Below are positions 7,861 through 45,123 of a stretch of DNA of 64,000 nt, one piece after another. Below the pieces are notes generated by a model. The model was not told the origin of the DNA. It worked only from the letters and a program-made list of their open reading frames with translations, and searched no databases. The translations under genes were made by a program, and so were the position numbers. The stretch is taken from positions 13,523 to 77,522 of the forward strand of contig JAVEYH010000003.1 in assembly GCA_034003585.1 (NCBI GenBank), read 5' to 3'. Position 1 is the stretch's first letter; each line of letters begins with the position of its first letter. Source of the stretch: Kiritimatiellia bacterium (lineage in GTDB: Bacteria; Verrucomicrobiota; Kiritimatiellia; RFP12; UBA1067).

Positions 7861-7880
7861 TCCGGGAAAGGGAAGCGACG

Positions 7881-10574: not shown

Positions 10575-10647
10575 GAAAACCATCTCGCTACCGACAAGGT
10601 GCCGGTCGCGCAGAAAACGAGTGAGTGAGACAGTTAAGGAATAAACC

Positions 10648-10995
10648 ATGAAACAAAACCGCAAAGGTTTTACGCTTGTTGAAATCATGATCGTGGTCGC
10701 GATCATCGGCATCTTGGCCGCCATCGCCATCCCGAACTTCATCAAGTCCCGCAAAGAGTCGCAGAAGAACGCCTGCATCGCCAACCTCAAGCAGATTGAG
10801 GGCGCGATCGAGCAGGCCCGTCTGGCCGGAATCGCCGCTCCCGCGGCGAGCGATATCTTCGGCACGACCGCCTACATCAAGGTCGCCCCGACCTGCCCGT
10901 ACGGCAAGGCCACCTACGCGATCCCGACCAGCGACACCCGTCCGGTGTGCCCGAACGTGGCGTCCGTCACGGATCACGTGCTGCCCACGACCTGA
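10648..10995 (+). CDS. pilA: type IVa major pilin (prepilin with N-methylation motif)
   Basis: Leader MKQNRKG, then FTLVEIMIVVAIIGILAAIAIPNF with Glu at +5. A C-terminal Cys pair (TCPYG...VCPN) fits a D-region disulfide. Confidence 0.9.
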   Translation: MKQNRKGFTLVEIMIVVAIIGILAAIAIPNFIKSRKESQKNACIANLKQIEGAIEQARLAGIAAPAASDIFGTTAYIKVAPTCPYGKATYAIPTSDTRPVCPNVASVTDHVLPTT

Positions 10996-17780: not shown

Positions 17781-17794
17781 CGCGCACCTCGCAT

Positions 17795-18271
17795 CTAAGG
17801 CGTCCGTTTCAGCTCCTCGGTGAACAGGTAGTCCATCCGCTCGCAATCCCGGTCATCGAACCGGCAGATGAACTTCCCGGTTTTGATCGGATGGAACACT
17901 TTGCGCCAACCCCAGCGGGAGCAGGTGCAGATATGGGTTGTGACCGTCATATGCGTCAGGTTGGTGGTCGGTGAATTCACGGTCACCTCTGTCTTCCGGA
18001 GGAAACGGCCGGCGGGATCCGCCGCGTTGCCGAAATCATCCACCCGCGTGCCGAGCTCGCGGTACAGGTGCAGATCCGCGTACGGCACCCCGCGCGCCCG
18101 TTCGATCCGGCCTTGGGAGAGCGATGCGGCCACATAATGGTCCCGCGCCATCTGGAAACGCGAGATCATCTGGTCGACCAAAGGGAACGCCGCCGTCAGG
18201 ATGATGACCAGCAGACCCATCGCCACCATCAGTTCGACCACCGTCATGCCGCGCTGCCCTGTTCTGCTCAT
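17795..18271 (-). CDS. PilV/FimU-like minor pilin
   Basis: MSRTGQRG|MTVVELMVAMGLLVIILTAAFP is a prepilin-type N-terminus with Glu at +5. The start was chosen at the internal ATG. Confidence 0.7.
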   Translation of the reverse strand: MSRTGQRGMTVVELMVAMGLLVIILTAAFPLVDQMISRFQMARDHYVAASLSQGRIERARGVPYADLHLYRELGTRVDDFGNAADPAGRFLRKTEVTVNSPTTNLTHMTVTTHICTCSRWGWRKVFHPIKTGKFICRFDDRDCERMDYLFTEELKRTP

Positions 18272-18281
18272 AACACCCCCG

Positions 18282-19427
18282 TCAGACCCGCCGCGACGGC
18301 ATCCGCTCCTCTTCGATCCGGAGCATGCCTTTCGTATCCCCCTGCCCGGGCAGATACGGTTCCGCCGCGTACAGCCGTTTGGCATTCATCTTCTGCAACA
18401 GGTCCCGCAACTGGATCACGGCGTCATAGCACAGGTTGATCATGTCCTGCCGCGACTTCTCGTCTTTGACGCCGCCCATCTTGAGAATTTCGATGCTGGT
18501 CAGCAGCACCGTGGCGGGCTGGCCCAGCGAATGGCACACTCCGGCCAGACTCTCCATCATCACGCGGTTGCGCTCCACCTGACTCTCGGCGATCTCGGCG
18601 CGCCGGCGCTCCGCCGTGTCGCGCAGCGAGATCACCATGCCGCGCAGCTCATCGTCGTCGTTGATATCCGGCACCGCCGCGATCTGAAGCCAGCGCGCCT
18701 GCTCGTTGACCAGCAGCCGCTGTTCGCCGATCCAGCTCTTGCGCTGCCGGACGTTGGCGAGCATCGGCACAATCACGGCCTTGTGGTCGAACCAGGCCGA
18801 CAAATGGCCGCCGAACACCTCGGTCTCCTCCCCGCCCGCCAGCAGATGCACCATCATGCGGTTGGCGTAAACGACCTTGCCCTCCATGTCCGCGATGCCG
18901 ATGCCCGAGTCGGTGTTGTCCATCGCGTGGTAGACCGAGAGCAGCCGCTGCTCGGCCTGCCACCGCGACTGGATGTCGCGGATGAGATAACAGACCGGTT
19001 CGGGAACGCGCAACCCGTTGCCCATGGCCACGATCTCCACGGCGGAGAGGCTGCCGTCCCTGCGCACCGCGAACGCCTGAATGCGCATGTACCGGCTTTC
19101 CGAGATCACCGCCAGGATCTCCTCCAGCAGCGAAGAGGTCACACCGGCCACCAGCGTGCCCAGCGGCACGCCGGACAGGCCCCGCTCCCGTTCGCCGTAC
19201 TGGAAGAACGAGGTCGCGCGGGCGTTCGCCTCCAAAACGATCCCGTGCCGGTCAGCCAGCAGGATCGCATCGTACGCGCTCTCGAACAGAAACCGGTAAT
19301 CCAACTTGCCGAAATAATCCGCCTGGACCTCTACCCCGGAACGGTCGGCCACGGTGGAACGCCCGTAACCCAATGAGCGGATATCGATTTTGATGGTCTG
19401 TGATTTGTCGTTCGTACTCATCGTCAT
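18282..19427 (-). CDS. PAS-domain protein with C-terminal DHp (HisKA)-like helix but no ATPase domain
   Basis: Two PAS-like segments, then ...MESLAGVCHSLGQPATVLLTSIEIL. No HATPase_c follows. Start at MTMSTNDK, preceded by AGGGGCGCC. This is the first gene of the minor-pilin operon. Confidence 0.6.
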   Translation of the reverse strand: MTMSTNDKSQTIKIDIRSLGYGRSTVADRSGVEVQADYFGKLDYRFLFESAYDAILLADRHGIVLEANARATSFFQYGERERGLSGVPLGTLVAGVTSSLLEEILAVISESRYMRIQAFAVRRDGSLSAVEIVAMGNGLRVPEPVCYLIRDIQSRWQAEQRLLSVYHAMDNTDSGIGIADMEGKVVYANRMMVHLLAGGEETEVFGGHLSAWFDHKAVIVPMLANVRQRKSWIGEQRLLVNEQARWLQIAAVPDINDDDELRGMVISLRDTAERRRAEIAESQVERNRVMMESLAGVCHSLGQPATVLLTSIEILKMGGVKDEKSRQDMINLCYDAVIQLRDLLQKMNAKRLYAAEPYLPGQGDTKGMLRIEEERMPSRRV

Positions 19428-19734: not shown

Positions 19735-20751
19735 ATGACCAAGGGGTTACCCATATCCGCGCTTGCGCGGCAATCCAAGCCGCTCACCGACATTGTGGGG
19801 ATCGAGGTGGGTTCCGGTAATCAGGACGGCGTTCCCGCGGTGCGCCTGCGCAAGCGTAACAACCGGTTCGAGCTGCTGGCCGCCGGGTTCCTGCCCTTGC
19901 CGGGAACCCTGCCCCTGGATCAGGATGCCGCGCAGAAGTCCGCGCCGGTCTGGCTGTTGCCGCGGCCGTTTCAGGCCCCGCACGCCGCGCTGGCCATCTC
20001 CTCCCCGCTCGGATTCCTGCGGCATGCCGCGGGAGCGGGGGAGGAGACGCCGGACAAGCAGGCGGTCCCTTTCCGGACCGCCTCCCGCGCCTCAGCTCCG
20101 GAATCCCCGGCGCTGCTGACCGGCCTGCCCGAGTTTCAGGCCGCCTGGGCCGCCCGGCTCCTGCCCGAAGGCCGCCGCCCCACCGCCCGCTCGATCCAGT
20201 TCTCCCCGGCCGCCGCCCTCAACGCGCTGACCGCCTCACCGGGTTTCAGCGCGGTCTCCGGCACGGCCACCGCGCTCTTTGTCTTCGCCGAATTCACCTC
20301 CATCGCCGCCTTCCAGGAGGGGCATCTGATGCTGTACCGCGAACACGCCGCGGGCTATCTGCACCTCCGCAAGGTTGTCAGCCAGCAGATGGGCATTGAT
20401 ATGGCCCTGGCGGACTCCCTGCTTGACGACACGCTGGTCGACCCCACGCCGATCATCGAGCCGGTGCTCCGTCCGCTGTTCAGGCAGGTCGAGATCTCCT
20501 CGGACTTCCTGCTCCGCAGGCGAAACTGCAAGGCGGACCACTTTTTCCTGTGCGGCGTGCCTGCCGGGAACCGTTACTGGTCTTCGGTGTTCGCGCAGAT
20601 GATGAGCCATACGCTCACGCCGCTGCCGCCGTTGGACGGTGCCGAACCCCCGCCCCCGGGCCACTCTGGCGCGGACCCCCTCACGCCGGCCCAGAAACAG
20701 TTGCTGATGACCGCGTATGGCGCGGCGCGCGCCGCTTTGGAGGACGCATGA
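19735..20751 (+). CDS. pilM: type IV pilus assembly protein PilM (actin-like)
   Basis: N-terminus ...IVGIEVGSG. Size and position (first gene of the pilMNOPQ set) fit PilM. Confidence 0.7.
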   Translation: MTKGLPISALARQSKPLTDIVGIEVGSGNQDGVPAVRLRKRNNRFELLAAGFLPLPGTLPLDQDAAQKSAPVWLLPRPFQAPHAALAISSPLGFLRHAAGAGEETPDKQAVPFRTASRASAPESPALLTGLPEFQAAWAARLLPEGRRPTARSIQFSPAAALNALTASPGFSAVSGTATALFVFAEFTSIAAFQEGHLMLYREHAAGYLHLRKVVSQQMGIDMALADSLLDDTLVDPTPIIEPVLRPLFRQVEISSDFLLRRRNCKADHFFLCGVPAGNRYWSSVFAQMMSHTLTPLPPLDGAEPPPPGHSGADPLTPAQKQLLMTAYGAARAALEDA

Positions 20752-21395
20752 GCAGCGTGTACCACCTCAATCTGCTGCGGCCGGAAGAGCACCTGAGCTC
20801 CAGCCCCATCCGCCTCCGGGTGATGCTCCCGATGCTCGCCCTGCTGAGCGCGCTCGGCGTGGGGGTCTGGTGGAGCGTGCTGGCGGGACGCGCCCGCGCC
20901 ATCACCCAGCAGAAAAACGCCATCGAGGCCAACCTGTCGCAACTGAGGCCGACGCACGAAACCGTGCTCGGATTGCGCGCCGAGCAGCGGGACGTGACGG
21001 CGACGTTGGAGCAGCTTGCCTTTTACACGCGGGCGCGGCTGCGCTTCGGCCCCGCGCTTCAGGCGCTCGCGCATCATGTTCCGGACCAGATTCAACTGAC
21101 CGAACTTCATATTCCGCCGCCCCCGGAACCGCCTCCTCCCGATCCCAAAAACCCGGTGTGGGGGCCCACCAACCCGGTGGAGCGCGTCACCCTGCGCCTG
21201 ACGGGACGGACCACCGGCGCCCAACAGGTCGAAACCCTGCTGCGCGCCTTCCGCACCGAGGCCTTCACCAACCTGATCCGCTCCGCCGAAATTCCCAAGG
21301 GCGCCTACCGCCAGGACACGACCCGGCGCGGCGCAAGCAGAGAAACGCTTTTGTTTGAGTTGAACTGCGAATGCGCTTCCAGGAGGTTTGAATGA
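20748..21395 (+). CDS. pilN: PilN-like inner membrane pilus alignment protein
   Basis: YHLNLLRPEE start, a single TM helix, then a periplasmic coiled-coil domain. An ATGA overlap couples it to pilM. Confidence 0.65.
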   Translation: MSSVYHLNLLRPEEHLSSSPIRLRVMLPMLALLSALGVGVWWSVLAGRARAITQQKNAIEANLSQLRPTHETVLGLRAEQRDVTATLEQLAFYTRARLRFGPALQALAHHVPDQIQLTELHIPPPPEPPPPDPKNPVWGPTNPVERVTLRLTGRTTGAQQVETLLRAFRTEAFTNLIRSAEIPKGAYRQDTTRRGASRETLLFELNCECASRRFE

Positions 21396-22003
21396 GCCTT
21401 GACACCTCCATGCTTCACAAAATCGCCCCCTCCATGCAGCGCTCGATCCTGATCACCCTCGCCGGGCTGCTGGTTTCCGCGGCCATGGTCTTTTTCCTGG
21501 TGTGGCCCGCGCGCGCGCGCGTCCACGCGCTCGCCGCGGAGCTGAACACCCTGCGCGACACCCTCGCCACCGTGCGCGCGGATATCGCGGACACGGAAGC
21601 GCAACGGCGGAAAACCGCCGGGGTCCGCTCGCAATACGACGCCCTGGTCCAATCGGGCGTGCTTCAACCGCTCCTCAACTCGTTCGCCATGCGGGGCAAG
21701 TCGCTGCTCGACCCGCTCGCGCAGCAGACCGGGTTCGCGATCGCCAACGTCAAGGACGACCGCTTCCTGCGGCTGCAGGTGCCGAAACAGGCGCCCCTCC
21801 AGCTCCACGGGCGCCAGCTGATCGAGTTCTCGGGCCAGGGCGCCTACACCTCGATCGTGGACTTCATCGCGCTGGCCGAGGAACAGTTGCCCCTCTGCAC
21901 CCTCGCGGGGCTCAAGATCATCAGCCAAACCCAGACTCCGGAGACGCACAAGGCGTTCATCACCTTCGAATGGCCCGCCAAAGGCGAGAAACGGACCCCA
22001 TGA
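21392..22003 (+). CDS. pilO: PilO-like inner membrane pilus alignment protein
   Basis: Single N-terminal TM helix, coiled-coil and alpha/beta domain. ATGA overlap with pilN. Confidence 0.65.
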   Translation: MSLDTSMLHKIAPSMQRSILITLAGLLVSAAMVFFLVWPARARVHALAAELNTLRDTLATVRADIADTEAQRRKTAGVRSQYDALVQSGVLQPLLNSFAMRGKSLLDPLAQQTGFAIANVKDDRFLRLQVPKQAPLQLHGRQLIEFSGQGAYTSIVDFIALAEEQLPLCTLAGLKIISQTQTPETHKAFITFEWPAKGEKRTP

Positions 22004-22554
22004 GAAACGCGCAACACGCAACACGCAACGCACCACGCGCCACGTCTCTGTTCCCGGAGCCGTTTGACGCCGGCTGGGCACGGACCGCGTTTTCCCTCCT
22101 TCTGTTTTGTCTCGCCGCCCTGCCGGCGAGCGCCGCGCGCGACCCCTTCTGGCCCATCGGCTACGAACCGCCGAAACCCGAACCCGCGGTCAAAGAAACC
22201 CGCGAAGTGCCGAAAAAGGCACCGCCGCAACCCGTATCGGCCAAACCAGCCCCTCCCCGGCCCAAACCCCCGGCCGTGAAACCCGTGACCGACGGGGATT
22301 GGGCCGACGCGCGCGCCCTCATCACCGTCACGGGGTTCACCCGCGCGACACGCCCCGACACGGGCGAGACCCGCGCCCTGGCCCTGATCAACCGCCACTC
22401 CTACGCTCCCGGCGACACCCTCTGCCTCACCAACGCCGGCATCGCCTTCCTCTGGCGCATCGATTCCCTTGACAACCGTGAGCTGAAACTGGCGCCGCTC
22501 CAAGCCTCCCGGATCGCCCCGCCCGGCGCGGGCCCCTCCGGAAGCGCGCCCTGA
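22000..22554 (+). CDS. pilP: PilP-like lipoprotein
   Basis: Signal peptide, Pro/Lys-rich linker and a C-terminal beta domain (ALITVTGFTRATRPDTGETRALALINRHSYAPGDTL). ATGA overlap with pilO. Confidence 0.55.
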   Translation: MRNAQHATRNAPRATSLFPEPFDAGWARTAFSLLLFCLAALPASAARDPFWPIGYEPPKPEPAVKETREVPKKAPPQPVSAKPAPPRPKPPAVKPVTDGDWADARALITVTGFTRATRPDTGETRALALINRHSYAPGDTLCLTNAGIAFLWRIDSLDNRELKLAPLQASRIAPPGAGPSGSAP

Positions 22555-22615: not shown

Positions 22616-24484
22616 ATGAACCGTATCAGCCGACTCTGTGCGTTCGTCGCGGCCAGCCTGTGCCTGGCCTGGCAGCCCGTCACGCGCGCCGAAGAGGCCG
22701 CGGCCCCGGCCCCCGTGCCGGCGAACACCCCCTCCGAATCCGGGGCCAAGCCGCCGCAGTCCGCCAAGACCACCGCCTCGGTCCGTGTCACCGATGCCTC
22801 ATCCTCCAGCGAGCCGCTCGTTTCCATGACCTTCGACGAGGCGCCCCTGGCGGATGTGATCAAGGCCTTCCGCGACGCCACAGGGGCCAACATCATCTCC
22901 GGCGGCACCAACGTGCTGCAGGCGAACATCAGCGTCAGCCTCGACAATGTGCCGTGGCGCAAAGGGCTCTCCTCGATCCTGGACCCCCAGGGCCTGCAAC
23001 TGGTCGAGCAGCCCGCCGGATCCGGCATTTACGTGATCAACACGAAAACCGTCGAGGTCCCCAAGATCACCCGCGTGTTCTCGCTCGAGTACATCAAGGC
23101 CGAGGATGTCGCCGACCTGCTGAAAACCACCCTCGGCACCACCGGCGGGATTGTGACTCCCTTCAAAGAGGCCAATGCGGTCATCCTCACCGCCACGGAA
23201 CAGCAGATCACCGAGTGCGAGACCATCATCAAGGCCATCGACAAAGCCTCGCCACAAGTCTACATCGAGGTCCGTTTCGTCGAACTGAACGCGGCCGCCA
23301 GCCGGAAACTGGGCCTGAAATGGGACAGCCTCGGCACAAAAGAAGGCTGGGGCGTGCACGCGGGCACCACCTCCTTCGGTTTTCAGAACGATTACCTCAA
23401 AACCAAAGACAAAGGTACGGACCGCAGCCGGAGTTTCGAATCGGGCGACACCCGTTCCCTCGTGAATGACATTCTGGACATTGAAGAGAACGACGTGAGC
23501 CAGAGCGCCCTGACGCGCACGGTCAAGAGTAATGACGGCTTCACCCAGGCACGCGCCTTCACCGGCACCCTCTCGCTGGACGCCTTCTCCCTCGCCATGA
23601 ACGCCTTCGAGCAGATGGACGGCGTCTCGATCTTCTCCAACCCCAAGATCATCGTGGCCAACGAGAAAGAGGCGGTCGTGGACATGAGCCAAAAGGAGCC
23701 CAACCTGACCGTGACCTCCTCCCGTTCGGGAACCGCTGGCGACCAGCTCGACATCTCGGCCGAACTCGAGGTCATCCCGGGCGAGAAGGGGGACAAGGAC
23801 GGGAAAGGCAAAGGCCTTTTCGCGGGCGAGGCGTTCTTCAGTTACGGCATCACCCTCAAAGTCACGCCGCGCATCAGTTCCACCGGCCTGATCACCCTCA
23901 ACGTGGAACCCTCGATCAGCAAATGGGTCCGTGATTACGAGTTTAAAGGCGTCTCCGATTCCACGCCCACCCCGACATATCCCATCATCTACATGCAGCG
24001 CCTGCAGACGGTCTTCACCATGAACAGCGGCACCACAGCCGTGATCGGCGGCCTGACCACGACAACCGAAAACAACATCGATTCCGGCATCCCTTGGCTG
24101 CGCGAGCTGCCCTGGGTGGGATCGCGCCTGTTCGGCTGGAAGAGCCGCGCCAAAGAGCAGAAGGAGATCATCATCTTCGTTTCCGTCGGTCTGGCCGATC
24201 CCCTCAAACTGCCCGAATCTGTCGGCATGCCGAAAAACGCCATCCTCGGCCGGGACCTGCTGACCGGCGAACTGAAAGAGCCGGGAGACCGCACCAAAGA
24301 AGAGGTGATGAGTCTCCGTGACCCGGCCCGCAAGGCCAAACAGCGCGCGCCCGCGGACGGGACGCCCGCCGCCGCAGGCGGGGCCGCCGCGCCCGCAGCC
24401 GTACCGGCCGCATTGGTGACCGAGAGCGAAGCGGCGAAAACGGCACAGCCGGTCGACACCGCCCCGCTGCTGCAGAACCCGTAG
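22616..24484 (+). CDS. pilQ: type IV pilus secretin PilQ (GspD family)
   Basis: Signal peptide, N0-like domain and the conserved secretin C-domain ...TAVIGGLTTTTENNIDSGIPWLRELPWVGSRLFGWKSRAKEQKEIIIFVS. Confidence 0.9.
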   Translation: MNRISRLCAFVAASLCLAWQPVTRAEEAAAPAPVPANTPSESGAKPPQSAKTTASVRVTDASSSSEPLVSMTFDEAPLADVIKAFRDATGANIISGGTNVLQANISVSLDNVPWRKGLSSILDPQGLQLVEQPAGSGIYVINTKTVEVPKITRVFSLEYIKAEDVADLLKTTLGTTGGIVTPFKEANAVILTATEQQITECETIIKAIDKASPQVYIEVRFVELNAAASRKLGLKWDSLGTKEGWGVHAGTTSFGFQNDYLKTKDKGTDRSRSFESGDTRSLVNDILDIEENDVSQSALTRTVKSNDGFTQARAFTGTLSLDAFSLAMNAFEQMDGVSIFSNPKIIVANEKEAVVDMSQKEPNLTVTSSRSGTAGDQLDISAELEVIPGEKGDKDGKGKGLFAGEAFFSYGITLKVTPRISSTGLITLNVEPSISKWVRDYEFKGVSDSTPTPTYPIIYMQRLQTVFTMNSGTTAVIGGLTTTTENNIDSGIPWLRELPWVGSRLFGWKSRAKEQKEIIIFVSVGLADPLKLPESVGMPKNAILGRDLLTGELKEPGDRTKEEVMSLRDPARKAKQRAPADGTPAAAGGAAAPAAVPAALVTESEAAKTAQPVDTAPLLQNP

Positions 24485-24503: not shown

Positions 24504-24533
24504 CCGGCGGCGAAGACTCTCCCGCGCCGCCGG
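24504..24533 (+). other. GC-rich hairpin (9-bp stem CCGGCGGCG/CGCCGCCGG, 12-nt loop) between pilQ and the giant gene; no U-tract
   Basis: Read directly. Possible attenuator or RNA stability element. Confidence 0.3.
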
Positions 24534-24548
24534 AAACGAGGAGCCGCC

Positions 24549-27500
24549 ATGAACACAAACGTTTTCCGCTACCGCCGTCTCGCTACCGCCGCGGCCATGC
24601 TGACCGCCGCCGCGCTCCGGGCCGCCGATTTTTATGTCGCGTCCGACGGCAGCGACACCGCGGCCGGGACCGAAGCGGCGCCGTTCCGCACGATCCAGCG
24701 CGGCGTGGACGCCGCGGCGACCGGCGACCGGGTCTGGGTCGCCCCGGGCCTGTACGCCAACCCGCCCGTCGCCGCCGCAGGAAAATCGCGCCTCGCGATC
24801 ACCAAGAACATCACGGTCCGCAGCACCGGCGGCGCCGCGCAGACCGTCATCCGCGGCCAGCCCCACAGCGACACGCTGCGCTTCGGCAGCGACGCGATCC
24901 GCTGCGTGTACCTGAGCGCGGGCACCCTGGACGGCTTCACCCTCGAAAACGGGTTCGCCAACGCCGCCTCGCCCGGCTCCGACATGACGGACCCGGTCAA
25001 GAACGGCGGCGGCGTGTACACGCCCGACGGCATCCGCGACGCCCAGGTCGTCAACTGCATCATCGCCGGGTGCGGCGCCTACCGCGGCAGCGCCGCGCAC
25101 GGCTCCACCCTGCGCAACTGCACCGTGGTCAGCAACCATGTGAGCAGCACCAGCGGCGCCGCGCTCTTCAGTTGCCATGTCTACAATTCGATCGTGATGT
25201 TCAACGGCCCCTCGAATGACGAGAACTACCCGTATGAGGCCAACAGTGTCGATCAATCGCGTTTCTTTTTCTCCTGCACCAGCCCCGCCCCGGGCCTGAA
25301 CGTGTATGGCGAGACGCGTGACGGCGGCAACAACCTCACCGAGGACCCGCTGTTCGCGGAAGGCTCGCTGCGCCTCGCCGACAACTCGCCCTGCATCAAC
25401 GCGGGCAGCAACGACCACACCAACGGCACGCGCGCCGCGGCCGGAGACGCGCGCGTGCAGGGCGGCACCGCGGATATGGGCGCTTACGAGCGCGGCCAGA
25501 CTTTCAACACCCTGACCGTGATCCACGGCACCGGCGGCGGCGACTATACGAACGGCGCGGTCGTGGCCCTCACCGCCCACCCGGGCCTCGCCTGGCAGCT
25601 CTTCGACGGCTGGACCGGGGAGGTCGCCACCGTGACCGGCACCGCCGACGCCGCAACCACCCTCATCATGCCCGACCGGGACATCACGGTGGTCGCCACC
25701 TACCGCACGCTCACGCTGGATGAGTATCTGGCCGAAGTCCTGGGACTGCCGCAGCCGGTCACGAGCGGCAACCTCGCCTACGGGGACGTCGCGCCCCAAA
25801 TCCCCGAAGTGAAACTCGGGCCGGTGGAGGACGGCGAGTCCGCCTTCCTTTCCACGGTCTACACCAATGGCGGAACCCTTTTCTTCCCGTGGCGCGTCAG
25901 CAGCGAGGCGGGATATGACGAGCTGCGGCTCCTCCTCGACGGCCTCCCCGTCCAAACCTTCTCGGGCGAAGGCTCCGGCATCGCGACGCAGGCCGTGACC
26001 GGAACAGGTCCGCACACCCTCCTTTGGGAGTACCGCAAGGATGTCGAAGCGTCCGACGGCGCGGATGCGGGCTGGGTCGGCGCCGTCACCTGGATCCCCG
26101 AACCGCTGGCCGCCGAATTGGGAGCGCCCGGACATGCGGTCCGCTTCCCGGACGGCCAGCCGGGTGCGCCGCTCCCCTTCCCGTACGGGTACGCGGCCTG
26201 TTTCCTGGACCCCGCGGCACCAGCCGGGGCCGCAGGAGGCGAAGCGGTCCGGCTGGGCGGGCTGGATGCCGGGGGCAACCCCCTCTTCCCGGACGGCTCG
26301 ACCAACCGGCTGGAGGTGACGCTGCAGGGCGCGGGACAACTCTCCTTCCAGTGGTGCGCCTCGAACCAGCTTTCAGACACGGTGATCTGCCTGATCGACG
26401 GCACGGAAGCGGCCCGCGCCAGCGGCACCAAAAACGGGTGGCTCTCCTTCACGACCAACCTGCTCACCGCCGCGGCCCACACGGTCACCTGGGTCTACAC
26501 GAAAAACGCCTCGGGGTTCGCAGGCGCCGACGCGGCCTGGATTGACAACGTCACCTGGGACCGCTTCACCCATACCCTGACCGTCGAGAACGGTCAGGGC
26601 GGCGGGGTCTTTCCTGTCGGGGATCCGGTCACCATCCTGGCGGATGACCCGCCGGCAGGTCAGATGTTCAGCGTCTGGGACGGCGACACGGCGTACCTCG
26701 CCGATCCGGCCGCGCCATCCGCCACGCTGATCATGCCCGACCGCGACATCACCCTCCGCGCGCTCTTCACGCGCGAGGTGTTCCCGCTTGCGGTGGTCAA
26801 CGGCCGCGACGCGGGCGCCTGGCCCAATGCGGTGTGCGAGGGCACAGGGGAGCCCGAGGGCGCGTACCCGGCTGGCGCCTCCGTGCGCCTGGTCGCCGCC
26901 CCCGCACCGCTCTGGTACGTGTTCGACCGCTGGACCGCCTCGGATCCGGGCGCGGCGTTCGACGACGCGCTGGCGGAGGTGACCCGTTTCACCATGCCTT
27001 CCAACGCCGTGACGGTCACCGCGTCGTACCGCGCCCTCAGCAGCAACGAGAAACTCGGCGAAGCGCTCACGATCCGGGGCCAGCCGCTGACCGTCTCCGC
27101 CTTTTCGCCCAGCGGCGTCGTGGCAATCGCCTCCGGCGGTGTCCGGTATGATGATCCGGTGGTCCAGATGGGCGGGCCCGCCGTGGGTCCGGGACAGAGC
27201 GTGACCCTCTCCACCTCTTCCTTCACCGGTGACGGCGTCCTGCTCTTCTGGTGGCACGCCGACGCCGAAGCGGAGTCCGACGGCCTCCGGCTGGAGGTGA
27301 ACGGGCTCACCGCCTCCCCGCTGTACTCCGAAAAGCGGACCAATGACACCGACAAGATCTGGCACCTTTACGGGTTCGGCCTCACCAACGTCACCGAGAT
27401 CACCTGGCGCTTCACGCGGGATGATTCGTATGCCGTGCATCAGAACATCGTGCTCGTCGACCGCGTGACCTGGATTCCCGGCGCGCTCCTCGACGCGCTC

Positions 27501-30500
27501 GGCGCGGGAGCCTGCATCCCCAACATCAATGCCGAGTATGACCCGCTCTTCCAGGGCCGGAATCACGGGGACGGCGGCTTTGACTTCGACGGCGAGGACG
27601 GCGGCGTGGCTTGGGTCGACGACGCGCCCGGCGGCGGCGGCGCCATCCGGCTGGGCCGTTTCGGTTATGTGACCAACAACCTCTGCGCGCAGGTCGCGTT
27701 CACCAACTTCGGCACCGGCGTGCTCACCTGGGAGTGGACCGCCAGCAGCGAAGCCGCGGGCGATGAACTCGCCCTCGAAATCGACGACATCCCCACGAAC
27801 TGGATCAGCGGCAAACTCAACGGCGCCTGGTACGGCAGCGCGTTCGCGGTGACCTCGGACCGCTTCCAGGGCGAATCGACCCTGAACCGGTTCGCCTTCC
27901 GCTACCGGAAGGACGGCGATGTGAGCCTGCTCGAAGACTGCGCCTGGCTGCGCAACGTGCGTTGGCATGCCACCCGTAAACTCACCGTCGAGAACGGTTC
28001 GGTCCTCACGCCCGCCGCGACCGAAGAGGGATATTACATGGCCGGCCTGCCGGTCACCATCCTGGCCGACCCGCCCGCACCCGGTTTCTATTTTGACCGC
28101 TGGACCGGAACCAACCTCACGGGGCTGGCCTCCGCAATCACGAATCCCAGCCCGACCTTCATCATGCCGGACCGCGACCTGACACTCACCGCAACCTACA
28201 CCACCAACGCGCCGCCGGTCCCGCACTATACCCTGACCGTAGCGAACGGATCCGGCAGCGGCTCGTATGAGAGCGGGACGATCGTGCCGATCCTGGCGGA
28301 TGCGCCCGGCCTGTGGCAGACCTTCACCGGATGGGCCGGCGACACTGACGCCCTCGCGGATCCCTCCGCCAGCGCGACCACCGCGCTCATCGGCAACGAA
28401 AACATCGCGGTGACCGCCACCTACAGCGTTTTGCCGGTCCCGGATCTGATCCGCGACGCGCTCGGCGTCCCCGCGCCCATCACGTTCGCCAATCTGACGG
28501 CCGACAACATCGGAGCGGACAGCGTGACTTTCGGCCCGCTCGCGGACGGCCAGACCGCCTTCTTCTCCACCGTCTACACCAATGCGGGGACCGTGAGCTT
28601 CCCGTGGTCCGTGGACAGCGAAGAGGGCTACGACTTCCTCACCTTCGCGGTGGACGGCACCAACCTCCTCGAGGCCTCCGGAACCCGCTCCGGCGTGATG
28701 ACCCATTTCGTCGCGGGCGACGGACCGCATACGCTGCAATGGTCCTACACCAAGGATGTCAGCGATGCGGCGGGCAGTGATCGCGCCGTCATCGGCCGGG
28801 TCACCTGGATTCCCGACGCCCTCGCAGCCGAACTGGGCACGCCCGGCAAGCCTCTGACCGCGCCGGACGGGTTTGACGCGATCCTGCTCGATGACGCGCC
28901 GCCCGCGGGCGCGGTCGGCGACCGGGCCGTGCGGTTCGGCGGCGGCGGCAGCGTGGATCCCGACGGATCGGTCACGCTCGGCACGCGCTTCTCGGGCAGC
29001 GGCACCCTGGCCTTCCAATGGTACGCGTCATCCGAACAGAGCCACGACTACCTGATTCTCCTCGTCAACGGGGCCGAGGCCGCGCGCATCAGCGGGACCA
29101 AGGACGGGTGGCAAACCTTCACGACCAACCTGCTGACCGTGATGGAGCACGATGTCCGCTGGCGCTATCAGAAAGACGGCAGCGGCTCCTCCGGACAGGA
29201 TTGCGGCTGGGTCGACAGCGTCACCTGGACCCAGTTCACCCAGAATCTGACCGTGGAGAACGGTTCGGGTGGCGGGGTCTATGCGGTCGGCCAGACGGTG
29301 CCTGTCCTTGCCGACACCCCGGCCGCCGGGATGGAGTTCGACCAGTGGGACGGCGACACCGAGACCCTGGCGGACCGGTACGCGGCCGGAACCTCCCTGG
29401 TGATGCCGGGCCGCGACATCACCGTGCGCGCCCTCTACCGTCCGCTGACCCTCACCGTCACGGTGGTCAACGGCCGCGACGGCGGCGCGTGGCCCAATGC
29501 AGTCCACGAGAGCACCGGTGAGCCGGAAGGCGCCTACCCGGAAGGCGCCGAGATCCGCGTGATCGCCGACCCGGCCCCGCTGTGGCAGACGTTCGACCAC
29601 TGGAGCGCCGAGCCCGCAGGCGTGGTGTTCGCGGACCCGAACGCGGCCATCACCACCTTCACCATGCCGGACGCCAGCGTCACGGTGACCGCCGTCTACC
29701 GCCAGCAGACCGTCCCCGAGCAATTGGCCGGCGCGCTGACGATCGCCGGGCAGCCCCTGACCGTCACCGCCGCCTCGGCCACCGGCGTGGTCGCCCAGGC
29801 GCAGGGCGGCATCCGGTACGACGATCCGGTCGTGGTCTTCGGCGGACCCTCGATCGGCGCGGGCCAGACGGCCGAGCTGACCTTCACCAACTTTGTCGGC
29901 GACGGCGTGCTGCTTTTCTGGTGGAAAGGCCAGTCGGAAACAGCCTACGACCGCGTGCGGGTTCTGGTGAACGGCACGGACACCGCAAGCAGCGTCTCGG
30001 CCAAGGACGCGGTCTGGCGGTTGGCGGCCAGCGCCATCACGGGCGCTTCCTCCATCACGTTGCGGTTTGAGCGCGACAGCTCCTATTTCGTGCGCGAGAA
30101 CACGATCGCCATCGACCGCGTGACCTGGATCCCGCAAGAACTGATTGACGCGTTCGGATGCGCCCCCGCGCTTCCCGACATCAACGGCGAAACGTCGGGA
30201 TTCGACGGCGAGGACGGCGGCGTGAGTTGGGTGACGGATGCGCCCGGCGGCGCGGGCGCCGTGCGCTTCGGCCGCTTCGGTTATGTCAACAACAGCCAGC
30301 ACGCCCAGGTTACGGTGACCAATTACGGCACCGGCATCCTGACCTGGCAGTGGGCCGCCAGCAGCGAAGCCTCCGCCGACAGGCTGGAGTTCTGGGCCTC
30401 CCCGGACCAGGATCCCACCGATCTGCCCCACACGTGGACCGCCGGCAAGGAGGAGAGCTGGCACGACGCCTCTCATGTGGTCCGGAGCGGGACCGAAAAC

Positions 30501-31223
30501 CGGGAGACCGCGTCCAAAACCCTGCGCACCTTCCTGTTCAAGTACAGCAAGGACAGCGATGTCAGCGTGCTTCAGGACTGCGTCTGGATGCGCCAGGGCC
30601 TCTGGACCCCGACGTTCAAACTGACGCTCGATTCCGCGGTGGTCGTCTCCTACACCCTGCCCGCCGCCTTTGCCGGCATGGCTGCGGTCATCGAAGAGGC
30701 GGAGGAGTATCAGATCTTCCCGGTCGGGACTTCTCTGACTCTCGCGCCGGAGCCGGCGCCGGACGGCATGGTTTTCGACAGTTGGGAGGGCGACGTGTTC
30801 GTGCTCACCAATGCGGTCTCGCCCGTCTGCACTTTCCTGATGCCGGAGGGCGACATCGCGCTGACCGCCACGTACGTTGACGCGCCCCTCCCGCCCTCGG
30901 GTTCCGGCCTGCGCGCCGCCTCGACCATCACTTCCCTGCGCCTGACCCCCGGCTCCCCCGATGCGCTCACCCGCAGCCTCACCGGCGAGACGCAGACACA
31001 GCCGACCGTGCTGACGCTCGACTTCACCGGCGCCCCCCAGACCGAATACCTGTTGGAATGGATCCCCTCCCTGAGCGGTGACGGCGTCTGGCAGAGTCTG
31101 CCGATCGCCTACCGCCAGGTTCTGGGCGACACGGAAGACGGCCAGCGCGCCATCCGCCTCTTCGCAACGCTCCCGGCAGACACCCCGCAGGCGTTCTTCC
31201 GGTTGCGGACCTCCGAACCGTAA
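24549..31223 (+). CDS. giant (2224 aa) secreted right-handed beta-helix protein with multiple InlB B-repeat-like beta modules; candidate adhesin
   Basis: Signal peptide ...AALRA|ADFYVASDGSDTAAGTEAAPFRTIQRGVDAA, a pectate-lyase-fold N-terminus. Recurring modules of the form TLTVENGxGGGVxxVGxxVxxLAD. Located between pilQ and pilT. Confidence 0.85.
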   Translation: MNTNVFRYRRLATAAAMLTAAALRAADFYVASDGSDTAAGTEAAPFRTIQRGVDAAATGDRVWVAPGLYANPPVAAAGKSRLAITKNITVRSTGGAAQTVIRGQPHSDTLRFGSDAIRCVYLSAGTLDGFTLENGFANAASPGSDMTDPVKNGGGVYTPDGIRDAQVVNCIIAGCGAYRGSAAHGSTLRNCTVVSNHVSSTSGAALFSCHVYNSIVMFNGPSNDENYPYEANSVDQSRFFFSCTSPAPGLNVYGETRDGGNNLTEDPLFAEGSLRLADNSPCINAGSNDHTNGTRAAAGDARVQGGTADMGAYERGQTFNTLTVIHGTGGGDYTNGAVVALTAHPGLAWQLFDGWTGEVATVTGTADAATTLIMPDRDITVVATYRTLTLDEYLAEVLGLPQPVTSGNLAYGDVAPQIPEVKLGPVEDGESAFLSTVYTNGGTLFFPWRVSSEAGYDELRLLLDGLPVQTFSGEGSGIATQAVTGTGPHTLLWEYRKDVEASDGADAGWVGAVTWIPEPLAAELGAPGHAVRFPDGQPGAPLPFPYGYAACFLDPAAPAGAAGGEAVRLGGLDAGGNPLFPDGSTNRLEVTLQGAGQLSFQWCASNQLSDTVICLIDGTEAARASGTKNGWLSFTTNLLTAAAHTVTWVYTKNASGFAGADAAWIDNVTWDRFTHTLTVENGQGGGVFPVGDPVTILADDPPAGQMFSVWDGDTAYLADPAAPSATLIMPDRDITLRALFTREVFPLAVVNGRDAGAWPNAVCEGTGEPEGAYPAGASVRLVAAPAPLWYVFDRWTASDPGAAFDDALAEVTRFTMPSNAVTVTASYRALSSNEKLGEALTIRGQPLTVSAFSPSGVVAIASGGVRYDDPVVQMGGPAVGPGQSVTLSTSSFTGDGVLLFWWHADAEAESDGLRLEVNGLTASPLYSEKRTNDTDKIWHLYGFGLTNVTEITWRFTRDDSYAVHQNIVLVDRVTWIPGALLDALGAGACIPNINAEYDPLFQGRNHGDGGFDFDGEDGGVAWVDDAPGGGGAIRLGRFGYVTNNLCAQVAFTNFGTGVLTWEWTASSEAAGDELALEIDDIPTNWISGKLNGAWYGSAFAVTSDRFQGESTLNRFAFRYRKDGDVSLLEDCAWLRNVRWHATRKLTVENGSVLTPAATEEGYYMAGLPVTILADPPAPGFYFDRWTGTNLTGLASAITNPSPTFIMPDRDLTLTATYTTNAPPVPHYTLTVANGSGSGSYESGTIVPILADAPGLWQTFTGWAGDTDALADPSASATTALIGNENIAVTATYSVLPVPDLIRDALGVPAPITFANLTADNIGADSVTFGPLADGQTAFFSTVYTNAGTVSFPWSVDSEEGYDFLTFAVDGTNLLEASGTRSGVMTHFVAGDGPHTLQWSYTKDVSDAAGSDRAVIGRVTWIPDALAAELGTPGKPLTAPDGFDAILLDDAPPAGAVGDRAVRFGGGGSVDPDGSVTLGTRFSGSGTLAFQWYASSEQSHDYLILLVNGAEAARISGTKDGWQTFTTNLLTVMEHDVRWRYQKDGSGSSGQDCGWVDSVTWTQFTQNLTVENGSGGGVYAVGQTVPVLADTPAAGMEFDQWDGDTETLADRYAAGTSLVMPGRDITVRALYRPLTLTVTVVNGRDGGAWPNAVHESTGEPEGAYPEGAEIRVIADPAPLWQTFDHWSAEPAGVVFADPNAAITTFTMPDASVTVTAVYRQQTVPEQLAGALTIAGQPLTVTAASATGVVAQAQGGIRYDDPVVVFGGPSIGAGQTAELTFTNFVGDGVLLFWWKGQSETAYDRVRVLVNGTDTASSVSAKDAVWRLAASAITGASSITLRFERDSSYFVRENTIAIDRVTWIPQELIDAFGCAPALPDINGETSGFDGEDGGVSWVTDAPGGAGAVRFGRFGYVNNSQHAQVTVTNYGTGILTWQWAASSEASADRLEFWASPDQDPTDLPHTWTAGKEESWHDASHVVRSGTENRETASKTLRTFLFKYSKDSDVSVLQDCVWMRQGLWTPTFKLTLDSAVVVSYTLPAAFAGMAAVIEEAEEYQIFPVGTSLTLAPEPAPDGMVFDSWEGDVFVLTNAVSPVCTFLMPEGDIALTATYVDAPLPPSGSGLRAASTITSLRLTPGSPDALTRSLTGETQTQPTVLTLDFTGAPQTEYLLEWIPSLSGDGVWQSLPIAYRQVLGDTEDGQRAIRLFATLPADTPQAFFRLRTSEP
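25700..31140 (+). repeat. internal tandem duplication of an approx. 2.7-kb (about 900-aa) supermodule within the giant gene (unit A about 25700-28420, unit B about 28420-31140; roughly 55-60% aa identity)
   Basis: Example pairs: LGLPQPVTSGNLAYGD...VTWIPEPLAAELGAPG versus LGVPAPITFANLTADN...VTWIPDALAAELGTPG, and LSFQWCASNQLSDTVICLIDGTEAARASGTKNGW versus LAFQWYASSEQSHDYLILLVNGAEAARISGTKDGW. Confidence 0.7.
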
Positions 31224-31242: not shown

Positions 31243-32718
31243 ATGCCCACACTCGACCGTTTCCTCATTCCGCTCGTCACCGAATCGGGCAGCGACCTGC
31301 ACCTCAGTGCGGGCCGCCCGCCCTTCATGCGGATCCACGGCACGCTGGCGCCGGTTCCCGGCGAACCGCTTCTGACCAGCATGCGGATTTTGGAGCTGTT
31401 GCGGGAGATCATGCCGACGCAGAACATCGAGGAACTCGAGCGCGAATGGGACACCGACTGCGCCTACGAGATCCCGGGCACCGCGCGCTTCCGCGTCAAC
31501 GGGTTCCGCGACATGCACGGGTTCGGTGCCGTGATGCGCGTGATCCCCGAACTGATCCCGACGTTCGAGGAACTCAACCTCCCCGAGGTCCTGCGCGATT
31601 TCTGCCGCCTCTCCAAAGGCCTGGTCATCGTCACCGGCCCCACCGGCAGCGGCAAATCCACGACCCTGTCGGCCATGGTCGATTACATCAACCGGGAGCG
31701 CAACGAGCATATCATCACCATCGAGGACCCCATCGAGTTCGTGCACACGCCGCGGCAGTGCGTCATCAACCAGCGTGAGGTGCACCGCGACACGCACAGT
31801 TTCTCGCGGGCCCTGCGCGCCGCCCTCCGTGAAGACCCGGACATCGTGCTCGTCGGCGAAATCCGCGACCTGGAGACCATGGAGATCGCCATCGAAACCG
31901 CGGAAACCGGCCATCTGGTCTTCGCCACCCTGCACACCAACACTGCGGCCACCACCGTGGAACGCATGATCGACAAGTTCCCGGCCGAGCGCCAGAACCA
32001 GATCCGTTCCATGCTTTCCGACACGCTCAAAGGCGTGGTGGCGCAAACCCTCTGCAAAAAAATCGAGGGCGGCCGGGTGGCTGCGTTCGAGGTGCTGGTC
32101 GTCACCACACCGGTCGCCGCGCTCATCCGCGAGGCCAAGACGCACATGCTCCCCTCGGTGATGCAGACCGGACGGGCCGCAGGCATGCAGACCTTCAGCG
32201 ACGAGCTGACGCGGCTCGCCGCCAAAGGCATCATCTCGTCCGAAGACGCCTACATCAAAGCCGTGGACAAGGTGGACATCGAAACCAAATTCCGGCTCGC
32301 GGGCATCAGCCTCGACTTCAAAAAACAGGCCGAGGAGGCCGCCCGGCTCGCGCGTATGGCCAAAGCCCAGGAAGTGCTGCAGGCCGGACGCGCGGCGCTG
32401 CAGGCCGACCCCAAGAACAGCGCGGCACTGTGCGATGTGGCTTGGATTCTCGCCACCTCGCCCTTCGCGGAGCTGCGCGACGGCAAAGAGGCGGTGAAAC
32501 TCGCGGAAAAAGCCTGCAGCCTGTCACGCGACAAAGATGCGGCCGCGCTCGAGGTGCTGGGCGCGGCCCAGGCCGAATACGGATCCTTCCGGCGCGCGCT
32601 GGACGCCACACGCCGCGCCGCCGAGCTGTACAAACAGGCGGGCGACGTCGTGCGCGCGACCGCGCTCGGCAACCGCCTCGGGATGTTCGAGCAGAGCAAA
32701 CCGTACCGGGATGAGTGA
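31243..32718 (+). CDS. pilT: twitching-motility retraction ATPase PilT with approx. 135-aa C-terminal TPR-like extension
   Basis: Walker A GPTGSGKSTT and a PilT core of about 355 aa. The extra C-terminal helical TPR-like region begins ...ALCDVAWILATSPFAELRDGKEAVKLAEKACSLS. Confidence 0.85.
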   Translation: MPTLDRFLIPLVTESGSDLHLSAGRPPFMRIHGTLAPVPGEPLLTSMRILELLREIMPTQNIEELEREWDTDCAYEIPGTARFRVNGFRDMHGFGAVMRVIPELIPTFEELNLPEVLRDFCRLSKGLVIVTGPTGSGKSTTLSAMVDYINRERNEHIITIEDPIEFVHTPRQCVINQREVHRDTHSFSRALRAALREDPDIVLVGEIRDLETMEIAIETAETGHLVFATLHTNTAATTVERMIDKFPAERQNQIRSMLSDTLKGVVAQTLCKKIEGGRVAAFEVLVVTTPVAALIREAKTHMLPSVMQTGRAAGMQTFSDELTRLAAKGIISSEDAYIKAVDKVDIETKFRLAGISLDFKKQAEEAARLARMAKAQEVLQAGRAALQADPKNSAALCDVAWILATSPFAELRDGKEAVKLAEKACSLSRDKDAAALEVLGAAQAEYGSFRRALDATRRAAELYKQAGDVVRATALGNRLGMFEQSKPYRDE

Positions 32719-35133: not shown

Positions 35134-35241
35134 CCGAAATGAACGGGAGGAATGCCGGGGAACGGGGGCAAGACCGCACAGCTCCCGTTCCTGATCCCAT
35201 CCTTCCCCTCCTTCAGCAGTTTGGCGAAGTGACAGGAAAGC

Positions 35242-35766
35242 GTGTGCCACATGTGCCCGTTTCCGGACAGTCTGAACCGTTTCCGTCCCGCTCAGGGCCC
35301 CGCCCCCGCCGGAGCCTGCGGCGGGTTCACGCTGTTGGAGGTGCTGTTCGCCTCAACCGTGATGCTCGTGCTGTTTCTCGCGCTGTTCGAAACCCTGCTC
35401 TTCTGCCGCCGGAGCGCCGCGGACCTCCGCTGCCGGCTTGCGGCCGACGCGCTGGCGTATGATGTCGCCTGGGAGGTCTTCAACCGGAAAACCACCTGGT
35501 TTGACCGGCAGGTCACGGCGGACCGCTCCGCGTGGTACCCGGTCCCCCCGGATTTCTCCAGCTCCTTTCCCACCGGAACGGCGCAAACCGCCGTCTACAA
35601 CCTCACGATCCTGCGGCAGCCTGAAGGCGGTGGCGCGGTCACCCACTGGCGCATCATCACCGATGTGCGCTGGCCGCGCCCCTCCGGCGGCTGGGGCCGA
35701 CTCGCCCAACCGTATGCCGTGGACCGTTACCGCGCCGAACGCAACCTGTTCCGCACCGGACTCTGA
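35242..35766 (+). CDS. pseudopilin/minor pilin (prepilin-type N-terminus GGFTLLEVLFASTVMLVLFLAL); start codon uncertain
   Basis: Class III signal with Glu at +5. The long leader suggests the real start may lie downstream of the annotated ATG. Confidence 0.65.
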   Translation: MCHMCPFPDSLNRFRPAQGPAPAGACGGFTLLEVLFASTVMLVLFLALFETLLFCRRSAADLRCRLAADALAYDVAWEVFNRKTTWFDRQVTADRSAWYPVPPDFSSSFPTGTAQTAVYNLTILRQPEGGGAVTHWRIITDVRWPRPSGGWGRLAQPYAVDRYRAERNLFRTGL

Positions 35767-35780
35767 CCGAGGACAAAAAC

Positions 35781-36320
35781 ATGTCATCCTCTCCCGACAC
35801 CTGCCGCGACCCGCGGGCCGGCTTCACCCTGACGGAACTGGTCTTCTCCGTCGCCCTCCTCTCCCTGGTCCTCGCCCAGGCGGGAACCGCCCTGATCGCC
35901 TCGCAGCGGCTCTACGAGGCGACCGTGGCGGATCTCGAACTCACCCTCCAGTCGCGCGCGCTGCGCGAAAAACTGCTCTTCAACCTCAATGACGGCGAAG
36001 GCGGGCTCATGAACGCCAGCCTGAACGAACTCGAGATCGAGGACCCGAAACCCAACGGCAAAGGCAAGGCCCTGAAGTTCAAACCCAAGAAAGGCCCGGC
36101 CAACCGGCTGCGTCTCGGAAACAACAGGAAACTCACGGCCGACCGGGGACGGCCCGCCTGGCTGGAGAACCGCACGCCCGGCTTTCAGAGCGAGGACCTC
36201 TTTTGCGTTGTGCCGGGAAACAACGGCACGCTGCTGCTCGACCTGGATCTCGGATTCCAGATCCGGGACCGCTCCTACCGGCAGCGCAATCAGGCGAAGA
36301 TCCAGATTGTGAATCCGTGA
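35781..36320 (+). CDS. pseudopilin/minor pilin (GspJ/PilW-like)
   Basis: ...RAG|FTLTELVFSVALLSLVLAQAG, a prepilin motif with Glu at +5. Confidence 0.7.
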   Translation: MSSSPDTCRDPRAGFTLTELVFSVALLSLVLAQAGTALIASQRLYEATVADLELTLQSRALREKLLFNLNDGEGGLMNASLNELEIEDPKPNGKGKALKFKPKKGPANRLRLGNNRKLTADRGRPAWLENRTPGFQSEDLFCVVPGNNGTLLLDLDLGFQIRDRSYRQRNQAKIQIVNP

Positions 36321-44728: not shown

Positions 44729-45123
44729 GTCATCCCCCCCTTTTTTGAGGCTTGGCCTCATCCAGATCGCTATCGCCATCGGGTTCAGGATCGCCAGGCG
44801 ATAGACGTCCGGTTTCTCGCCCCCGTCCTTCGTCCTCCGTCCTGACAAGCCAACCACCCCAAATCCTCAAAACCAAACCAAAACTATACCTTATGTGGGT
44901 ACAGTACGAAGGGCGGTTGATCCTGTCAACCCCTTTCACTACGGGTGCAATTCCGGGCATCCCCGTTTCCCTGACTTCCATCAACGGGTCGCGCAGGGAT
45001 GCAGCCATTCAAAGGATGAGGCGATGGGCTTCCCGGGTTCGCAGCGAAGCGTCACACGTTTCCGTACACGGGGAACCGGGCGGAGTCAGGGAGACGGGGA
45101 TGCGTCCCCACACGCTCAGCCTG

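Follow-up and report, generated by a model that had tools for sequence, protein, structure and literature searches.

A giant beta-helix and B-repeat protein encoded between pilQ and pilT in Kiritimatiellia, a possible pilus-linked adhesin or exoprotein

Here, we report on a giant gene embedded in the type IV pilus cluster of a Kiritimatiellia bacterium (GenBank assembly GCA_034003585.1, contig JAVEYH010000003.1), located in a 64,000-nt stretch of DNA of about 66% G+C that is called the window below. The open reading frame (ORF; 24549..31223, + strand) starts with ATG and encodes 2224 amino acids (aa) followed by a stop codon; a GAGGAG ribosome-binding site (24538..24543, +) read from the sequence is located 5 nt before the ATG. 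On its 5' side is a pilQ-type secretin gene of 622 aa (22616..24484, +), which carries the Pfam domains Secretin and Secretin_N and has TIGR02515 PilQ as its top NCBIfam match, yet under the cut-off, and on its 3' side is a PilT/PilU-family ATPase of 491 aa (31243..32718, +; TIGR01420, 458 bits versus a cut-off of 319, aa 4-343). Both junctions were read directly: 64 nt separate the end of the secretin ORF (24484) from the giant ATG (24549), and 19 nt separate the giant-gene stop codon (31221-31223) from the pilT ATG (31243), exactly as claimed in the original prediction, which was made from this DNA alone. An artefactual ORF in high G+C DNA is ruled out; the gene is conserved, with orthologues at 38–74% protein identity, rich in recognizable domains, and confidently folded in structural modeling.

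The array around the giant gene is tightly packed, pilMNOPQ-X-pilT, and the position of X is conserved, which bears out the earlier claim that the gene is embedded among pilus genes. Four pilM/N/O/P-like genes (about 19735-20751, 20748-21395, 21392-22003, and 22000-22554, all +) overlap one another by 4 nt, and the following spacers are 61, 64, and 19 nt long. Please note that only pilO of these four has a family match, a weak one (T2SSM), PilM, PilN, and PilP being assigned by order and size; the gene order is the same in orthologous loci, where the giant-pilT spacers are mostly 7–48 nt. As judged from spacing, the giant gene is probably co-transcribed with the pilus genes. A scan of both spacers flanking the giant gene found no terminator-like site on the + strand, and a sigma-70 promoter scan found nothing, although this consensus may not apply to this phylum. 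The hairpin that had been predicted without a U-tract is present after pilQ (24504..24533, +), with a 9-bp G+C stem and no T-tract following it; its folding energy is ordinary for 66% G+C DNA (z = −1.29). It is seen in many related loci. A strong stem-loop 3' of pilQ, of unconserved sequence, occurs in most of them (L010, L014, L020, L025, L008, L028, and L032).

The giant protein is predicted to begin with a Sec-type signal peptide (aa 1-25; 24549..24623, +), as had been proposed. By inspection, it has an n-region with R7/R9/R10, an h-region of LATAAAMLTAAAL, and a cleavage site at ALRA|A, and ALQA|A is conserved in the orthologues. Inspection of the protein revealed neither a lipobox Cys after the signal peptide nor a hydrophobic C-terminal stretch, a motif check saw no prepilin motif, and neither Pfam nor NCBIfam matched the protein to a barrel or sorting-tag family. 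A conserved beta-helix cap, YYVA...GSD...TIQ, begins 1–3 residues past the predicted cleavage site and opens a right-handed beta-helix head (aa 26-318; 24624..25502, +), assigned by Pfam, NCBIfam, and a profile search of the Protein Data Bank (PDB), with a DUF1565/Pel9A-like cap and a choice-of-anchor-Q end (aa 275-315, NCBIfam). DUF1565 scores 24.5 bits versus a cut-off of 20.3, covering only about aa 27-72.

Behind the head is a long stalk made of two domain types, which we delimited with self-built hidden Markov models (HMMs) for each, together with Pfam. The whole domain order is signal peptide, head, B-JJ-BB-JJ-BB-JJ-BB-JJ-B, and a Pro-rich linker with a C-terminal domain. B is the InlB B-repeat of about 68 aa, and Pfam Flg_new_2 (PF18998) matches eight stretches with 203.6 bits versus a cut-off of 23.6 (E 3.3e-61). 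J is a beta-sandwich domain in eight copies with cores of 90–107 aa. The modules of approximately 90 aa in the original prediction represent two different domains, eight B and eight J. On the + strand, B1 (aa 321-388; 25509..25712, Pfam and B HMM) is followed by J1 (aa 428-517; 25830..26099) and J2 (aa 582-671; 26292..26561), both supported by the J HMM and an AlphaFold2 (AF2) model. The B HMM and the J HMM then place B2 (aa 676-742; 26574..26774), B3 (aa 762-830; 26832..27038), J3 (aa 881-977; 27189..27479), J4 (aa 1043-1141; 27675..27971), B4 (aa 1144-1220; 27978..28208), B5 (aa 1228-1295; 28230..28433), J5 (aa 1333-1422; 28545..28814), J6 (aa 1471-1562; 28959..29234), B6 (aa 1566-1633; 29244..29447), B7 (aa 1636-1720; 29454..29708), J7 (aa 1771-1862; 29859..30134), J8 (aa 1915-2021; 30291..30611), and B8 (aa 2046-2111; 30684..30881). 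Neither B nor J domains occur elsewhere in the window.

The AF2 model of a JJ pair (287 residues, about 140 for each J) has a pLDDT of 90.8 and shows J as a concave jelly-roll beta-sandwich, apparently MAM-like and similar to carbohydrate-binding modules (CBMs), of the type of the VesC C-terminal domain; the modeled fold resembles many CBMs. At the sequence level, the J profile reaches VesC among PDB sequences only weakly (E 0.37), and no Pfam family matches J at E ≤ 10 except Big_3_5 at chance level. J is a Pfam-less beta-sandwich domain, apparently related to the uncharacterized C-terminal domain of VesC, and going by the modeled fold, the J domains are probable glycan- or ligand-binding units. 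The last part, a Pro-rich linker with an immunoglobulin (Ig)/fibronectin type III-like domain ending in GFFRL (aa 2112-2224; 30882..31220, +), was assigned by modeling and profile searches: an Ig-like sandwich of about 95 residues is modeled with a pLDDT of 79, with strands at model residues 23-118. PDB sequences gave no match to this domain, and its structural neighbors are generic Ig folds only, so that it is assigned neither a sorting nor a docking role. Its profile, run against 1.84 billion representative sequences, found mainly family members and weak C-terminal matches in other Flg_new proteins; it cannot clearly be classed as a general sorting tag, nor is it clearly confined to the family. 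Six of these weak matches (P0144, P0145, P0162, P0165, P0166, and P0149; E 1e-6 to 1e-3) fall at the very C-terminal end of Listeria-Bacteroides-repeat proteins that otherwise differ, which hints at a recurrent terminal module. Altogether, the beta-helix, B-repeats, and MAM/CBM-like sandwiches fit what one would expect of an extracellular binding protein.

Most of the stalk is an internal duplication. Supermodule copy 1 (aa 384-1248; 25698..28292, +) and copy 2 (aa 1291-2130; 28419..30938, +) share 47.9% identity over 889 aligned columns (E = 0) when the protein is split in halves for BLASTP, whole-protein self-BLASTP giving the identity match only; B5 is the junction repeat between them in this comparison. 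At the DNA level, the copies are 68% identical over 919 nt. The coordinates of the two supermodules of about 900 aa in the original prediction were accordingly confirmed, whereas its estimate of 55–60% identity was too high, and an older nested duplication, by which each supermodule is in itself a doubled unit (aa 324-699 versus 762-1174, 29% identity), had been missed. Orthologues contain one (1332–1430 aa), two (2208–2351 aa), or three (3124 aa) supermodules. A neighbor-joining tree of 33 supermodules, built without bootstrap, separates the first (S1) and second (S2) copies into two clades, each containing every two-copy orthologue; the duplication is therefore old, as had been proposed. The deepest lineages (P0017-19) have one supermodule, the one-copy proteins P0014 and P0016 are nested in the copy-1 clade, the one-copy P0015 joins the copy-2 clade, and the third copy of P0002 is derived from the copy-1 lineage. 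This topology points to one old duplication followed by later losses and one extra gain, and it suggests that the one-copy state of P0014, P0015, and P0016 came from secondary losses. The family is under constraint, with 11.7% of the supermodule alignment columns invariant across the 33 units. One 180-nt block (27585-27763 versus 30201-30379, i.e., gene nt 3037-3215 versus 5653-5831) is 80.6% identical between the copies, as compared with about 68% elsewhere; it encodes FDGEDGG...GRFGY before J4/J8, where, across the 33 supermodules, FDGEDGG and the FGY triplet are largely invariant. The high identity could stem from strong constraint, perhaps on a binding site, or else from gene conversion.

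The slot of the gene is strict. The family was seen in about 20 distinct loci, with protein identities as low as 38%; in every one of them, the giant gene sits between pilQ and pilT, and at none was it seen elsewhere in the genome. When the giant protein and its orthologues, one- and three-supermodule forms included, were looked up by exact protein match, 11 of 11 cases gave pilMNOPQ-giant-pilT or a contig-limited part of it. A PilQ-anchored scan in which each GTDB species was represented by one genome gave 80 loci, mostly labeled Kiritimatiellia or Kiritimatiellae and some Lentisphaerae or Verrucomicrobia. The giant gene follows pilQ directly in 13 of them, with pilT next wherever the contig continues; pilQ is followed directly by pilT in 18; other genes are located downstream of pilQ in 42 more distant loci; and seven end at a contig edge. 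Carriers and non-carriers are interleaved in the PilQ tree, and their flanking pilus genes are alike. The original prediction had named, as evidence against itself, related genomes with the giant gene elsewhere and pilQ directly adjacent to pilT; these 18 loci, the closest relative among them, show the second half of this pattern, and the first half was never seen.

This closest relative (locus L009, 79% PilQ identity) has no giant gene and a pilQ-pilT spacer of 140 nt (L009:11786-11926), in which the post-pilQ hairpin is kept along with a 28/34-nt match to the stretch that encodes the C-terminal domain (window 31022-31055). The match was found by an ungapped window scan, in which 200 shuffles gave a mean of 21 and a maximum of 26 and other window regions gave at most 23; blastn-short missed it, and aligning the junction globally at low gap cost yielded scattered noise. 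Because this relic exceeds both the shuffles and the other regions, at least the L009 lineage has lost the giant gene by deletion. Relics were not found by tblastn in the other 17 pilQ-pilT spacers, so the direction of change in those lineages is inferred only. The branching of the S1 clade broadly follows the PilQ tree by visual comparison, and the giant protein and PilQ are each 62% identical to their counterparts in L003. The pattern fits vertical inheritance at the pilQ-pilT site with repeated loss. By this comparison, the giant gene is accessory and lineage-restricted, and apparently recurrently lost, rather than a core pilus part; the 18 direct pilQ-pilT loci and the deletion scar in L009 indicate that the pilus can dispense with its product.

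Three further cases deserve mention. A distant Lentisphaerales metagenome-assembled genome (MAG) encodes an unrelated 1670-aa CARDB/BACON-domain protein 64 nt after pilQ (L054:3052-8064), and it may be that other large surface proteins, too, can occupy the position behind the secretin (n = 1). In gut and rumen Kiritimatiellae (L060:11445-15763), pilQ is followed by a 762-aa tetratricopeptide repeat protein and a 677-aa protein with a von Willebrand factor A (vWA) domain, not by pilT or the giant gene. The MAG JAQVSS01 (isolate STF1_28) has three different pilQ contigs (L010, L012, and L015); two of them carry the giant gene, and in the third pilT follows pilQ directly. The bin may therefore combine several strains or contain more than one pilus cluster.

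How may the giant protein work? Our preferred reading, held tentatively and at somewhat less than even chances, is that it is an adhesin or exoprotein that binds glycans, is exported by Sec, is expressed together with the pilus machine, and leaves the cell through this machine, a function read from gene context only. The giant gene would be transcribed together with pilMNOPQ and pilT; its product, a short beta-helix head on a long stalk with a small Ig-like domain at the end, would be exported by Sec, fold in the periplasm, and then cross the outer membrane via the PilQ secretin, the type IVa pilus driving or carrying it as is the case for type II secretion system (T2SS) substrates and for TcpF and CofJ. 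The latter two are operon-encoded, Sec-exported proteins carried out by type IV pili through the secretin (PMC10120004, PMC9565799, PMC6048534). Secretin passage is proposed because a Sec-exported, folded, unanchored protein of 230 kDa in a diderm needs a secretin-type exit, and PilQ is the only secretin seen in the window; the giant gene has also stayed beside this secretin through divergence to 38% identity, and TcpF and CofJ set the precedent. Outside the cell, it might serve as an adhesin for polysaccharide surfaces, either linked to the pilus or released. The InlB-type B-repeats would serve as spacers alternating with the pairs of MAM/CBM-like sandwiches, and reach would be set by the number of supermodules of about 900 aa (one, two, or three). 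A bolder version, i.e., that the type IVa pilus (T4aP) machine in Kiritimatiellia is a dedicated export or display device for one giant (150–330 kDa) modular adhesin, a T4aP counterpart of TcpF/CofJ with a far larger cargo, a stalk that gains or loses supermodules, and no N-terminal disordered signal, is doubtful in our view and less probable than the general one.

Several points weigh against this adhesin or exoprotein reading. Its link to the pilus is drawn purely from gene position. Eighteen related, otherwise syntenic pilus clusters lack the giant gene, so the pilus works without it, and such easy loss equally fits a neutral passenger. At its N-terminus, the mature protein enters the beta-helix cap directly, with no disordered TcpF-like export signal. 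Large beta-helix/repeat proteins are common in these bacteria, and another beta-helix protein is encoded at 43262-44857 in the window. Furthermore, T-runs follow the pilQ hairpin in the lower-G+C relatives L028 and L032, where the element resembles an intrinsic terminator or attenuator; transcription may for this reason largely end ahead of the giant gene.

Such observations lead to the strongest rival, in which the giant protein is an ordinary large surface or secreted repeat protein that leaves the cell by another export route (e.g., a separate T2SS), its gene being a chance ancestral insertion between pilQ and pilT, since passed on or lost at that site, with no functional tie to the pilus; we consider this possible, though on balance unlikely. 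Its patchy distribution, the single demonstrated deletion, a pilus cluster that is otherwise unchanged with or without it, a hairpin or terminator-like element retained after pilQ regardless of the giant gene, and similar heads in many unrelated giant proteins of Planctomycetes-Verrucomicrobia-Chlamydiae (PVC) bacteria all suit a passenger. A passenger is harder to reconcile with a family never found at any other genomic position among about 20 loci at 38–100% identity. Likewise, an insert of 4–9.4 kb upstream of pilT with spacers of 7–48 nt would be costly if it were irrelevant to pilT expression, and the pace of divergence, about that of PilQ, is unlike that of a decaying passenger.

Kiritimatiellia are polysaccharide degraders, and a polysaccharide-degrading enzyme, i.e., a lyase or hydrolase head with the eight J domains as CBMs in a multimodular carbohydrate-active enzyme delivered by the pilus or a T2SS-like machine, has to be considered. 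The CBM-like fold of J and an alpha-L-fucosidase among the neighboring genes point in this direction, and the head profile matches beta-helix enzymes and phage tailspikes in the PDB, including N-terminal parts of the GH120 xylosidase 3vst, the rhamnogalacturonan lyase 5olq, and Pel9A 1ru4. These matches, however, are confined to the generic N-terminal cap (aa 26-120). Pel9A-like PF22842 scores 18.7 bits versus a cut-off of 25.2 and covers profile positions 10-55 of 370 at about aa 27-72 only, and PelN scores 39.8 bits versus a cut-off of 740. In the orthologue alignment, the invariant residues of the head are chiefly G, N, and C together with hydrophobic positions of the repeat; acidic or basic residues are few, and no obvious catalytic cluster is seen among them. 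With cap-only matches, no full-length match above the Pfam cut-off, and repeat-type invariants, we do not call the head a pectate lyase or a member of polysaccharide lyase family 9 (PL9), and the enzyme explanation as a whole is improbable. Least probable is a structural part of the pilus machine, such as a periplasmic or surface scaffold or a secretin cap, which the position directly after pilQ in the pilMNOPQ operon might suggest, yet the gene is missing from many closely related, otherwise intact clusters, naturally deleted in L009, and variable in product length from 1332 to 3124 aa, and Pfam and NCBIfam give no sign of likeness to accessory proteins of the TsaP, FimV, PilF, or PilW type.

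The rest of the window completes the pilus inventory. PilB (6136-7860; Pfam T2SSE and MshEN) and PilC (7641-8975; Pfam T2SSF) are encoded in the same pilus region as a hybrid kinase and a sigma-54 response regulator (9075-10454), and just downstream of the latter is the ORF of a candidate PilA (10645-10992, +), likely the major pilin, with a prepilin motif and the canonical type IV pilin N-terminus KGFTLVEIMIVVAIIGILAAIAIP. At least four proteins besides this candidate have prepilin-type N-termini and are candidate minor pilins, among them those encoded at 15585-17846 (−), 17795-18385 (−), and about 35233-36317 (+). The first, a 753-aa protein with a prepilin N-methylation motif, is an unusually large candidate that is found in loci with and without the giant gene. 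An adjacent 367-aa ORF (14448-15551, −) looks PilX/GspK-like by eye, but the prepilin motif did not match it. Taken together, the window holds a complete type IVa-like set, i.e., PilB, PilC, PilT, the secretin, PilMNOP, and major and minor pilin candidates. Past the end of the family model, PilT continues at its C-terminus for about 150 aa that are unannotated, and its 491-aa length is shared by loci with and without the giant gene, while the deeper one-copy clade has a 361-aa PilT. Farther downstream, the alpha-L-fucosidase (41221-43101, +) and the second, smaller beta-helix protein, of DUF1565/NosD type (43262-44857, −), are consistent with a polysaccharide-degrading lifestyle. Finally, a 1518-aa ORF (45124-49680, −) matches, within a single frame, a full AcrB-type resistance-nodulation-division transporter (aa 2-1023) and, at aa 1321-1480, an outer-membrane efflux protein domain; either an apparent fusion or an overlooked stop could explain this.

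Little is understood of how cargo or accessory adhesins are selected by type IV pili and by T2SS-like machines, and the proteins known to be exported by pili are few and small. If the pilus-dependence of the giant protein is true, its natural presence and absence and its three lengths would offer a comparative system for secretin passage and the recruitment of non-pilin proteins, and one could ask whether uncultured PVC bacteria that degrade polysaccharides adjust their attachment by stalk length; if it is a passenger, it is merely one more large surface repeat protein. The hosts are uncultured, and the comparative signal is clean and testable.

In the literature, we found nothing relevant on a gene between pilQ and pilT or on B-repeat proteins linked to pili. 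The closest parallels are TcpF, from the toxin-coregulated pilus (TCP) of Vibrio cholerae, and CofJ of the enterotoxigenic Escherichia coli (ETEC) pilus CFA/III, with which the giant protein shares a non-pilin nature, a Sec signal, a place within the pilus operon, one dedicated protein per system, and an exit through the pilus secretin, the last being here proposed only. TcpF and CofJ are small, belong to type IVb systems, and bind the tip minor pilin by a disordered N-terminal segment, whereas the present system is type IVa-like (PilMNOPQ and PilT) and known from genes alone, and its 2224-aa protein starts directly with a beta-helix; the disordered N-terminus on which the TcpF/CofJ mode of recognition depends was not found here. 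PilY1/PilC tip adhesins of T4aP are likewise large non-pilin proteins with a Sec signal, a genetic tie to T4aP, and a presumed adhesive role. Their genes are located with minor-pilin genes, unlike the giant gene between pilQ and pilT, and membership in the PilY1 family was rejected, as Pfam and NCBIfam found no PilY1 beta-propeller or vWA domain and the C-terminus is Ig-like. Among T2SS substrates, PulA and SslE/YghJ are encoded next to their machine. Unlike these two and VesC of V. cholerae, the giant protein has no protease, pullulanase, or mucinase domain, and the adjacent machine has PilT and a pilus-type pilin set, not a Gsp set. Surface proteins with InlB B-repeats or Listeria-Bacteroides repeats (Flg_new, Flg_new_2) resemble it in using such domains, eight Flg_new_2 here, as spacers; in the giant protein, they alternate with pairs of a Pfam-less sandwich, in a diderm PVC host and a pilus operon. 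The stalk also recalls the "periscope" surface proteins, in which stalk length changes by whole-module copy number, with its one, two, or three whole modules. Near-identical DNA repeats of the periscope type were not found, however: the copies are old and diverged (48% at the aa and 68% at the nt level), and their number varies between lineages only, not by rapid slippage within a strain. We rate the giant gene as encoding a non-pilin, operon-encoded partner of a type IV filament machine; its domain types are known or resemble known folds, and what is new is the combination, i.e., a B-JJ-B array on a beta-helix head, in a fixed T4aP slot, with one-, two-, and three-supermodule forms.

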